A stretch of DNA of 64,000 bases from NCBI RefSeq assembly GCF_054482525.1, contig NZ_CM137006.1. One strand, given 5' to 3'. The notes under the pieces are model-generated. The model was not told the origin of the DNA, ran no database searches, and worked only from the letters and a program-made list of their open reading frames with translations. The stretch's first letter is position 1; each line of letters begins with the position of its first letter. Positions 10,284 to 14,066 of the stretch are shown piece by piece. The translations under genes were made by a program, and so were the position numbers.

Positions 10284-11981
10284 TCAAAGCAATAACGTAG
10301 CCTGTGAGGCGACTGGGGTGCGTTGGTTAGGAATGTAAAACGCAATTTCCGTTCCTGGTTCCAGGCGGCGGATATGCAGCCCCTCGCCATACAATAACTT
10401 CACGCGATGATGGACATTCAGCAGACCAATTTTATTGCCCGGCATTTCGTTCGCTTCGACCCGCTCAATGACTTTTGGATCGATGCCGTGCCCGGTGTCT
10501 CGCACCGCAATGCGTACCCGATTACCGCACTCTGCAACGCTGATGGTGACAACGCCTTTACCTTTGCAAGGCTGGATACCGTGGACAATGGCGTTTTCCA
10601 CCAACGGCTGGATCAGCAGGCTGGGAATGCAGCAATTCACCTCTTCATCAATATCATAGATAACCGTCAGCTTGTCGCCAAAGCGGGCCTGCTCAATGGC
10701 AATATAGTCTTTAATTTGATACAGCTCTTTTTTGATATCGATTTGCTCATCGTCTTTTAATTCAATGTTATAGCGCAGATAACGCGACAGATTAAAGATC
10801 AGCTGGCGAGCGGTATCTGGATTCAGACGGATTGACGATGAAATAGCGTTCAGAGCGTTAAACAGAAAATGGGGATTAATTTTGCTTTGCAGGGCGCGAA
10901 GCTCTGCCTTATTTGCCATTTCACGTAACTGCTCGGCGCGTGAAACCTCCAGTTGCGTGGAGATGATTTGCGACAGACCGACAGCCATTTCCTGTAATGA
11001 CGAGGTTATCTGATGCGCGTGGCAGTAGTAAATTTTCAGCGTTCCGGTCACAACGCCTTTCTCCCACAATGGGATCACCAGCATGGAATGAATCTCTGGT
11101 GTGCGGTGGGCTTCATCATTGTTTTTAATGATGATTTTTCCGTAATTCATCGCCTGACGGGTAGTCGGGCTAATGAAGTCATCGCCATTCTGATAGTTAT
11201 GTTCACCCACGCCAACATAGGCCAGCACATGATCGGTATTAGTAATCGCCACCGCATCGGCGTGAATGTCATCGCGGATAATTTCGCAGACCTTGCGTAA
11301 TGACTCGCTATTGACATGGCGAAACAGCGGCAGCGTTTTGTTGGCAATATCCAGCGCCAGCTTGGCCTGCCGCGCGGCGCTGGCCTCCTTTTCGCCCTCA
11401 ACGCTTTGCACCAGCAGCACAATAAAGCCGATACAGACGCTGCCGAGGATCATTGGAATTCCGATTTTAGAGACGATATCGATCCCCAACGCGGTAGTTG
11501 GTGCCCAGACAATCACCAGAATCATGGTCAACGTTTCACACAACATGCCGCCGAGAATACCGACGCGCCAGCGCTGTGCTTTAGGGATTTTCAGGTTGAT
11601 CCAGCCCGATATACAACCCGCCAGAATGCTGGTGATAAAGCAGGGGATCGCCGTCACGCCGCCGATATCAATTAAATACCGGTGAATACCCGCAATCACG
11701 CCGGTAATGATGCCTACCCACGGGCCAAACAGAATTCCGCCTGACATCACCGCGATAATACGTACGTTCACCAGCGAGCCTTCTACGGGAACGCCGGACC
11801 AGGTGCTAAACAGGGCGAACAGCGAGAAAATGGCGGTAACGGCGAGCAGCTCTTTCGGTGAGTGTGCCGACTTGTGCAACAGTTCGCGAAACAGGCGGAT
11901 ACGGATGAGAAAGAACAGGCAGATAAGCATTAACGCTGCCCGATCGAAGACCGCCAGCAGCATGTTGAATATTTCGTGCAC
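10284..11981 (-). CDS. ypdA: Sensor histidine kinase (5TM-LytS and GAF-type)
   Basis: 565 aa; N-terminal multi-TM region, C-terminal HATPase; sits directly upstream of ypdB (track ORFs overlap by 4 bp). Confidence 0.92.
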
Positions 11982-12357
11982 GGGTGACTCTGAATAAGGA
12001 TTAAACCTCTATGATAGGTAACCTGAAGGCTGATGACCAGCAGGCCGTTTTTGAGGAAAAACCACAATTTTAAAAGGGGATTGAAAGATAAATGGTGTAT
12101 TAGCAATGCATCTCTTGATAATGCATATCTGGTTAGTAAATTTATTGAAATTATAATGTTAATAAAATGAGTGGTATTTTTCTTGTTAGCGCAGATAAAT
12201 TTCCTGTTTTTGAAGTGGAGTTCCTCATTTAAAGCCATTGATAAAAATGTTCTAAAACGCTGGACAGACAGAAATTAATCAGGCTATTTTCAAAACAGCC
12301 ACCATCGTGGCAGCGTCGCTCGGACGGTCCGGGCGCTAACGTTAATCTGAGGAAATT

Positions 12358-13596
12358 ATGGCTGACACTCGCCCTGAACGTCGCTTTACGCGCATTGATC
12401 GTCTCCCGCCCTACGTTTTTAATATTACCGCTGAACTGAAAATGGCTGCGCGTCGGCGCGGCGAAGATATTATCGATTTCAGTATGGGTAACCCGGACGG
12501 TGCGACTCCGCCGCATATCGTCGAAAAATTATGTACGGTGGCCCAGCGCCCGGACACGCATGGTTACTCCACGTCACGCGGCATTCCGCGGCTACGTCGC
12601 GCCATTTCCCGCTGGTATCAGGATCGCTACGACGTTGAAATCGACCCGGAATCAGAAGCTATCGTCACTATTGGTTCGAAAGAGGGACTGGCGCATCTGA
12701 TGCTGGCGACGCTGGATCATGGTGACACGGTGCTGGTGCCGAATCCAAGCTACCCCATTCATATTTATGGCGCGGTGATTGCCGGGGCGCAGGTACGCTC
12801 AGTGCCGCTGGTGGAAGGTGTCGATTTCTTCAACGAACTGGAACGCGCCATTCGCGAAAGTTATCCGAAACCGAAGATGATGATCCTCGGCTTCCCGTCG
12901 AATCCAACCGCGCAATGCGTGGAGCTGGAGTTCTTCGAAAAGGTTGTGGCGCTGGCGAAACGCTACGATGTGCTGGTGGTCCATGACCTGGCCTATGCCG
13001 ATATCGTCTACGATGGCTGGAAAGCGCCGTCAATCATGCAGGTGCCGGGTGCACGCGATGTGGCGGTCGAGTTCTTTACGCTGTCGAAAAGCTATAACAT
13101 GGCGGGCTGGCGTATCGGCTTTATGGTTGGCAACAAAACGCTGGTCAGCGCCCTGGCACGTATTAAAAGCTATCACGATTACGGCACCTTTACGCCGTTG
13201 CAGGTGGCAGCGATTGCGGCGCTGGAGGGAGATCAACAGTGCGTGCGCGACATTGCTGAACAGTACAAACGCCGCCGTGATGTACTGGTAAAAGGGCTGC
13301 ATGAAGCGGGCTGGATGGTCGAAATGCCGAAGGCTTCGATGTATGTCTGGGCGAAAATCCCGGAACCGTATGCTGCCATGGGCTCGCTGGAATTTGCTAA
13401 GAAGCTGCTGAACGAAGCGAAGGTCTGTGTCTCTCCGGGGATTGGCTTTGGCGACTACGGCGACACGCATGTTCGCTTTGCACTGATTGAAAACCGCGAT
13501 CGTATTCGCCAGGCGATTCGTGGAATTAAAGCGATGTTCCGTGCCGACGGTTTACTACCCGCCAGCAGCAAACATATTCACGAAAACGCGGAATAA
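12358..13596 (+). CDS. alaC: Glutamate-pyruvate aminotransferase (class I PLP aminotransferase)
   Basis: 412 aa; [15 protein letters not shown]-lysine motif. Confidence 0.93.
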
Positions 13597-13615
13597 ACAC
13601 CGACCTCAAAAATGC

Positions 13616-13645
13616 AAACAGGAGCCTGATGGCTCCTGTTTTTCA
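13616..13645. terminator. Bidirectional rho-independent terminator (alaC / ypdK)
   Basis: aaacaggagcc-tgat-ggctcctgttttt perfect hairpin flanked by A-tract and T-tract. Confidence 0.75.
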
Positions 13646-13660
13646 TTGCACAGTTTGCTT

Positions 13661-13732
13661 TTAGATCATCAGGGCAAAAGTACCGGCCCAAACGATGACC
13701 ATAAAAGAAATGCCCATAAAGAAATATTTCAC
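13661..13732 (-). CDS. ypdK: 23-aa small membrane protein
   Basis: Hand translation of reverse strand from GTG: VKYFFMGISFMVIVWAGTFALMI-stop; too short for the ORF track. Confidence 0.6.
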   Translation of the reverse strand: MKYFFMGISFMVIVWAGTFALMI

Positions 13733-14030
13733 TTTACATCTCTCCGCGTAATTACTGTTACGCCTGAATGACTTCATTACACCTGATACAGTGAGTTGAC
13801 ACCGGGCAAAACGACCTTAAAAGTCCTGTATTTTACCGTGGGCATCACCCCAGAATTCTGAGCTAAACTGCTCCAGACGGCGCTAATGTACGCCTAAAAC
13901 TGAAACGAGACAAGAGGCATTTTCTTATTTACTTTTAGTAACTTACAGGTGTCTCATATCGGCGACAGTTTAATTTCTGACGGTAATAATTAGAGATTCA
14001 GCGAAGGAAAAAACCTTAAGAAAAAAGCCA

Positions 14031-14066
14031 TAAAAACCATGAGGTTATTATGGCTGATTTGAGGAG
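14031..14066 (-). terminator. Rho-independent terminator after lpxP
   Basis: agccataa / ttatggct stem with T-tract on the minus strand, immediately 3' of lpxP. Confidence 0.55.

Follow-up and report, generated by a model that had tools for sequence, protein, structure and literature searches.

Introduction

Small inner-membrane proteins that bind larger ones are among the closest described parallels to the locus considered here, and include AcrZ (which binds AcrB), MgtS (MgtA), MgrB (PhoQ), CydX (CydAB), and KdpF (KdpABC); for these small proteins, both the partners and the phenotypes are known. Type I toxins, with which a short hydrophobic peptide may also be compared, have a patchy and often multi-copy distribution. 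YpdK itself was reportedly presented among the small proteins of E. coli by Hemm and co-workers in 2008.

PMC3009722 counts ypdK among the 18 small ORFs of Hemm et al. and gives its product as a putative single-transmembrane peptide. The protein is also listed among small membrane proteins with a length of 23 aa and the transmembrane segment FFMGISFMVIVWAGTFAL (PMC10470546, Table S1). Bidirectional terminators between convergent E. coli genes, a category relevant to the 3′ end of ypdK, have been described as a class (Ju et al. 2019, via bioRxiv 10.1101/2022.10.23.513370), whose RNA, according to that preprint, does not resemble intrinsic terminators.

Here, we analyze ypdK and its surroundings in a 64,000-nucleotide stretch of DNA (the window). 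The best explanation of the locus as a whole, which we hold with high confidence, is that ypdK is a genuine gene with its own transcription unit, and that its product would be a 23-residue inner-membrane protein with a single transmembrane helix and a helix-packing partner.

Identity of the ypdK reading frame

The ypdK CDS occupies positions 13661..13732 of the minus strand and consists of GTG, 22 further codons, and TAA; the assignment draws on a RefSeq CDS, a match to the family NF033437, and 75 syntenic orthologues. Translation of the minus strand from 13732 to 13661 gives VKYFFMGISFMVIVWAGTFALMI (23 codons, then a stop), encoded by GTG AAA TAT TTC TTT ATG GGC ATT TCT TTT ATG GTC ATC GTT TGG (the first 15 codons) and GCC GGT ACT TTT GCC CTG ATG ATC TAA (codons 16-23 and the stop). 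The peptide, (f)M-KYFFMGISFMVIVWAGTFALMI, is predicted to be one hydrophobic helix over nearly its whole length. An initial annotation of the window had recorded a 23-codon, GTG-initiated frame on this strand and had named it ypdK: direct reading of the sequence and its translation confirmed the frame, and the name was borne out by the RefSeq CDS, which lies at exactly matching coordinates, and by the NF033437 match.

RefSeq gives the gene as "ypdK, membrane protein YpdK" (WP_010723117.1) at identical coordinates in strains PCN033 and DH5alpha, and a 701-nt probe of the locus was 100% identical to E. coli PCN033. In MG1655, RefSeq annotates ypdK as b4680 (2496921..2496992), between lpxP and alaC. 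Residues 1-23 of the peptide aligned to profile positions 1-23 of NCBIfam NF033437 ("YpdK", an equivalog 23 positions long) with 57.5 bits and an E-value of 9.4e-16, against a curated cut-off of 30 bits, and all 41 distinct orthologue peptides matched this profile as well. The exact sequence is called YpdK by NCBI and UniRef, as are its variants from Enterobacteriaceae and Pantoea. A Pfam search with the peptide returned no family, and the PDB held no YpdK chain, a profile search there giving a chance match of 10 residues to a light-harvesting protein (E 0.67). The initial identification is thus right, but the gene was already annotated and is no novelty.

Transcription unit and upstream DNA

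The gene lpxP lies 355 nt upstream of ypdK on the same strand and has its own terminator (14020..14055, minus strand), a hairpin at 14055-14026 followed by U6 (dG -18.4 kcal/mol, z -5.4), which separates ypdK from the lpxP unit. A simple scan missed this terminator because of its long composite stem-loop. A predicted sigma-70 promoter of ypdK was located at 13885..13913 of the minus strand, with a -35 element TTGTCT (13913-13908), a 17-nt spacer, and a -10 element TACATT (13890-13885); the predicted transcription start is near G13878, 146 nt before the GTG. Of the 75 ypdK loci, 73 retain the pattern cTTGT-N17-TACATTAGCGCC with unchanged spacing, the other two not being assessable by this search, and the -10 variants TAAATT or TAGATT are used in Erwiniaceae. 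The proposed promoter was not among the calls of a generic promoter scan. A tiling-array transcript (2494795-2494997, against a ypdK start at 2494943) begins 148 nt upstream of the gene (PMC3009722, supplementary file 3). The names ypdK, alaC, and lpxP, like the start coordinates expected for ypdK, are absent from the Cappable-seq and SMRT-Cappable-seq supplements. As an upstream neighbour, lpxP occurs only in Escherichia, Salmonella, Citrobacter, and Enterobacter and is replaced by varying genes elsewhere, while the promoter and leader of ypdK are retained as that neighbour changes between genera. From this comparison, ypdK appears to be its own transcription unit with its own conserved promoter.

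Upstream of the promoter elements, a conserved non-coding block (approximately 13891..14005, or 13879-14005 when the repeat over the -10 is included) is kept in Enterobacteriaceae whatever the upstream gene. Its approximately 115 nt contain an A/T-rich, UP-like tract beside the -35, an inverted repeat, and further A/T-rich words. The inverted repeat has the form (T)GTC(G)-N8-10-(C)GACA(C), with the window version GTGTCG-N8-CGACAC at 13949-13968, and a second repeat alike in format, GGCG-N8-CGCC, lies over the -10 (13894-13879; general form GNCG-N8-CGNC). Across a 140-nt piece comprising the promoter and upstream block, Kluyvera and Klebsiella are 92% identical. The block is presumed to be regulatory DNA. 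The possibility that it is another micro-ORF was rejected, as it has no 3-nt codon periodicity, and resemblances to LexA, CpxR, RcsB, and YpdB sites were set aside, since conservation does not extend to the key bases. No significant second copy of the upstream palindrome was found within the window. As a side observation, the ypdK promoter and upstream block of Kluyvera genomosp. 1 fill the 227 nt before a chromosomal class A beta-lactamase gene of the CTX-M/KLUC family, which is divergent from ypdK (locus L020, 4229-5101, plus strand) and matched NF033089 with 582.5 bits against a cut-off of 570.

At the other end of the unit, alaC (alanine transaminase; 12358..13596, plus strand, from the ORF list and RefSeq) converges on ypdK and shares with it a stem-loop at 13616..13641, a putative bidirectional intrinsic terminator identified by scanning, folding, and conservation. 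According to the consensus terminator scan, the hairpin has 11 pairs (6 of them G-C) and a 4-nt loop, ATCA. A gap of 19 nt separates it from each of the two stop codons, that of ypdK at 13661 and that of alaC at 13596. The initial annotation had put the distance from the ypdK stop to the hairpin at 15 bp and had described the ORF as overlapping it; the actual gap from the stop to the stem is 19 nt, and the two do not overlap, only the reported interval (13616-13732) spanning both. On the minus strand, the stem is followed by the tail GCAUUUUUGA (13615-13606), which the scan gave as GCATTTTTGA; on the plus strand, the U-run UUUUU (13639-13643) lies partly inside the stem and is weaker than that on the ypdK side. 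Folding of the 64-nt alaC-ypdK spacer gave -22.1 kcal/mol (z -4.2) for the plus strand and -23.6 kcal/mol (z -3.5) for the minus strand.

In most of the 75 species, the spacer measures 36-90 nt and is essentially one strong hairpin; in three lineages, genes have been inserted in it. The stem AACAGGAGCC... is common to Enterobacteriaceae, and Erwiniaceae carry GGGGCGAC... in its place with the hairpin retained. A single hairpin is thus kept in the spacer even though the Erwiniaceae stem has been replaced, which argues for one element used by both genes, and one hairpin most likely terminates both the alaC and the ypdK transcripts. The earlier suggestion that the hairpin serves both genes is, in this respect, partly upheld: the anatomy and the single hairpin conserved in most species agree with it, but the terminator scan called the site on the minus strand only.

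The 5′ leader

Between the predicted transcription start and the GTG, the ypdK mRNA would carry a 5′ leader of approximately 146 nt (13733..13878, minus strand), which was characterized through an alignment of 45 Enterobacteriaceae leaders, an RNAalifold consensus, and counts of the pairs in the proposed structure. On this strand, the leader comprises a 5′ hairpin (13877-13857); a conserved, single-stranded linker, AAUUCUG; a long-range helix, in which 13851-13841 pairs with 13803-13793; and a hairpin that abuts the Shine-Dalgarno (SD) sequence (13763-13746). In the long-range helix, 90% of the alignment cells are paired and 6 of the 10 pairs have changed on both sides; the corresponding values for the SD-adjacent hairpin are 89% and 4 of 6. 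Covariation on the proposed structure was 0.353, against 0.211 in shuffled alignments (none of 500 reached the observed value) and 0.06-0.12 when the partners were slid. G-U pairs are frequent (at one pair, for example, GU is found in 26 sequences), which places the structure on the ypdK-sense strand.

The first 36 nt fold at -5 kcal/mol or below in 72 of 75 leaders, usually as a 5′-proximal hairpin with modest z-scores, and the stems of this hairpin show visibly compensatory variants among species; Erwiniaceae leaders have a covarying 5′ hairpin of their own. The single-sequence fold of the leader from E. coli does not stand out (z -1.6). Species differ in the length of the leader, from 48 to 195 nt, and E. 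coli SCPM-O-B-8794 (locus L003, 3872-3999) has a 33-nt central deletion relative to K-12 and PCN033; thus, the centre of the leader, and indeed much of it, is dispensable. Searches of Rfam 15 returned nothing relevant for the leader in the window (E up to 1) or in 8 other species (E up to 0.1), and no tRNA or tmRNA genes were found. Nor was a consistent SD-sequestering partner found in the leader; predicted SD accessibility and the pairing partners differ between species. Candidate anti-SD sequences are UUCUG in Enterobacteriaceae and UCCU in Erwiniaceae, both of which are invariant and therefore beyond covariation testing.

Taken together, the invariant GTG, the covarying leader, and the upstream repeats indicate, at the level of comparative sequence analysis, a dedicated regulation of ypdK that is undescribed in the searchable literature. 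We tentatively propose that the leader, alone or with a DNA-binding factor, could be a new cis-regulatory element tying YpdK synthesis to a specific signal, possibly one within the pyruvate/alanine neighbourhood of pyrS(ypdA), alaC, and ypdK. A further reading would make the transcript of approximately 270 nt dual-functional, its leader serving also as a regulatory RNA or as a sensor (a riboswitch or thermosensor). The covarying helices on the sense strand and the conserved single-stranded linker AAUUCUG would suit such a role, as would the lack of an Rfam match, but the central leader has been deleted in several lineages, including the E. coli lineage that is 33 nt shorter, and no target or ligand is indicated by the sequence data examined; we consider this reading rather improbable.

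A type I toxin-like nature of ypdK, in which the leader would silence the primary transcript and an antisense or divergent small RNA would exert control, is less probable still. The small hydrophobic peptide, the long structured leader, and the fixed weak start codon would fit such a system, the conserved divergent block contains hairpin-like repeats, and the transcript overlapping ypdK was reported to be UV-induced (+1.06; PMC3009722, supplementary file 3). On the other hand, the sequence shows no evident LexA-box-like site, a search for conserved pairing that would sequester the SD found none, and the search for an antitoxin RNA was negative: RefSeq annotates no RNA gene at the ypdK locus, there was no Rfam match, and when the conserved divergent block was tested for duplexes with the leader in 14 species, the complementarity of a hypothetical divergent plus-strand RNA was as in shuffles (z ~0). 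A divergent small RNA that pairs with the leader was accordingly rejected as a candidate. Because ypdK is present in one copy, keeps strict synteny, and is strongly constrained by purifying selection throughout an order, and because no partner RNA was found, the toxin reading is unlikely, and we give it a small probability.

Conservation and coding status

The mechanical ORF list has 73 ORFs with 20 aa or more that overlap the local 4.5 kb, so length alone does not set a 23-codon ORF apart from chance; what lifts ypdK above chance is its conservation across species. Orthologues were collected by fetching 80 alaC loci from different species and then applying local tblastn and HMM searches; 79 of these loci were assessable, the E. 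albertii contig being left out because it ends too early. A convergent ypdK directly follows alaC in 75 of these 79 Enterobacterales loci, each from a different species, with carriers that include Escherichia, Citrobacter, Salmonella, Enterobacter, Kluyvera, Phytobacter, Kosakonia, Buttiauxella, Cedecea, Pantoea, Erwinia, Mixta, and Serratia. The four loci that lack it belong to Erwinia endophytica, Symbiopectobacterium, Lonsdalea, and one record labelled Pseudomonas. In the last of these (NZ_AUIE01000007.1, titled Pseudomonas resinovorans), the AlaC protein shares 91% identity with that of E. coli, and the assembly is probably mislabelled or contaminated.

Conservation of the frame across Enterobacteriaceae, which the initial annotation had named as a check, was found throughout: the 75 syntenic orthologues contain no frame disruption, their GTG is invariant, and the SD is kept. 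Orthologue length is always 23-24 aa, and over the first 23 codons, 69 distinct nucleotide sequences encode 40 distinct peptides (41 at full length). Entropy at codon positions 1, 2, and 3 was 0.58, 0.19, and 1.13, respectively, the third position being approximately sixfold above the second, and the median dN/dS relative to E. coli was 0.11. Residues M1, Y3, M6, G7, S9, G17, T18, and F19 are invariant, and K2, W15, L21, and M22 nearly so; at G7, S9, G17, and T18, all four synonymous codons are in use while the residue is never altered.

Within E. coli, the 701-nt locus probe was present in 5422 of 5426 complete genomes, with a median of one place per genome. Identity over the ORF and its SD reaches 99% or more in 5421 of the 5423 E. 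coli records, whereas the surrounding 701 nt are merely 95-99% identical in 5071 records.

Since synonymous-site substitutions dominate, dN/dS is 0.11, and frame-breaking indels are absent, ypdK is, on these comparative grounds, a translated gene under purifying selection. It could be argued that the frame arose by chance within a conserved non-coding RNA and owes its conservation to the RNA rather than the peptide, given the long, conserved, structured leader on the same transcript and the opening 8 nt of the reading frame, GUGAAAUA, which are invariant beyond coding need. Such an origin is very improbable in view of third codon positions that vary approximately six times more than second positions, four invariant residues that each use all four synonymous codons, the low dN/dS, and the intact frame in all 75 species.

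Translation start

The SD core GGAG, read directly from the sequence, lies at 13742..13745 of the minus strand, 9 nt upstream of the GTG, and is invariant in the 45 aligned Enterobacteriaceae leaders. Every locus has GGAG, or rarely a GGA/GAGC variant, upstream of GTG, in the context GCGGAGnGATG in Enterobacteriaceae and CAGAGGAG in Erwiniaceae. GTG is the start codon in all 69 distinct orthologous sequences, and the AAA codon that follows is equally invariant. ATG is one transition away from this GTG, and the fixation of GTG beside saturated fourfold sites implies, as far as sequence comparison can tell, that selection keeps either a weak start or the sequence GUGAAAUA.

The short interval between the SD and the GTG has features of its own. 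In E. coli it contains an ATG-TAA "start-stop" (13734-13739, minus strand), and in other genera it reads GATGAAAC, with an out-of-frame ATG 2 nt after the SD and an in-frame TGA before the GTG. The conserved GATG motif near the SD may pair with UUCAUU, which lies upstream of the SD-adjacent hairpin.

In the mechanical ORF list, the ypdK frame is prolonged to an in-frame ATG at 13777 (13661..13777, 38 aa), and a true product of 38 aa beginning MKSFRRNSNYAERCKVKYFF... is barely credible, since most genera have an in-frame stop 1-2 codons upstream of GTG, which makes the extension an Escherichia-specific accident, and since this ATG lies inside the conserved leader with AGGTG just 2 nt before it, NF033437 aligns to residues 17-38 of the long form only, and both RefSeq and the EcoGene-derived annotation take the GTG.

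Proposed mechanism and genomic context

Our preferred reading, that of a small helix-packing membrane protein with its own unit, can be stated as follows. Transcription of a unit of approximately 270 nt would begin at the sigma-70-type promoter and pass through the structured leader of approximately 146 nt to GGAG and the GTG start; 23 codons would then be translated, and the hairpin 19 nt past the stop would terminate the transcripts of both ypdK and the convergent alaC. The YpdK helix would pack against a larger membrane protein, or against itself, and modulate its partner. The helix displays invariant small or polar residues (G7, S9, G17, and T18) and invariant aromatic residues (Y3 and F19), together with the nearly invariant W15. 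By analogy with the characterized small proteins, helix-helix binding to a larger membrane protein is the likeliest mechanism. The fixed weak start and elaborate leader suggest that YpdK synthesis may be kept low and regulated after transcription.

A hint to the role of YpdK may also be sought in its genomic context. The arrangement pyrS(ypdA) <- -> alaC -> <- ypdK (10284-13732 in the window) is kept together in 63 of 80 loci and spans Escherichia to Pantoea, Erwinia, and Serratia; this block is the sole genomic hint available. The Salmonella locus lacks ypdA and retains ypdK.

Significance and comparison with known systems

As a finding, ypdK matters little, being a real, annotated micro-gene of the kind that ORF tracks miss. 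It also provides a clean positive control, in that comparative genomics alone validates an ORF whose length could arise by chance, and YpdK ranks among the most conserved yet least understood small proteins of E. coli. Within the locus, further work might be worthwhile only on the undescribed leader and the upstream repeats.

Compared to YpdK of E. coli K-12, the gene in the window encodes the same peptide (WP_010723117.1) from the same GTG start and has the same position relative to alaC and lpxP; no difference was found, and the window simply represents another E. coli strain. At its 3′ end, the alaC-ypdK element resembles the bidirectional terminators of Ju et al. (2019), as these are presented in the citing preprint, in being a single element at a conserved position within a short convergent spacer, and differs from them in its classical form, a G+C-rich hairpin whose U-run is clear on the ypdK side and weaker on that of alaC. 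RseP left HA-MBP-YpdK uncleaved, so that YpdK was no RseP substrate in the sole screen that included it (PMC10470546, Table S1).

Like the type I toxin mRNAs (tisB, dinQ, ldr, shoB, and zorO), that of ypdK encodes a peptide that is short and hydrophobic, has a 5′ leader that is long and structured, and would be of low translatability, but it departs from them in its single copy, order-wide synteny, strong purifying selection, and the failure to find an antitoxin RNA. The likeness to AcrZ, MgtS, MgrB, CydX, and KdpF is broader: like these proteins, YpdK is shorter than 50 aa and has a single predicted transmembrane helix that carries conserved small or aromatic residues, together with what appears to be a small transcription unit of its own. 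What sets it apart from them is its shorter length, 23 aa, and its near lack of residues outside the membrane.
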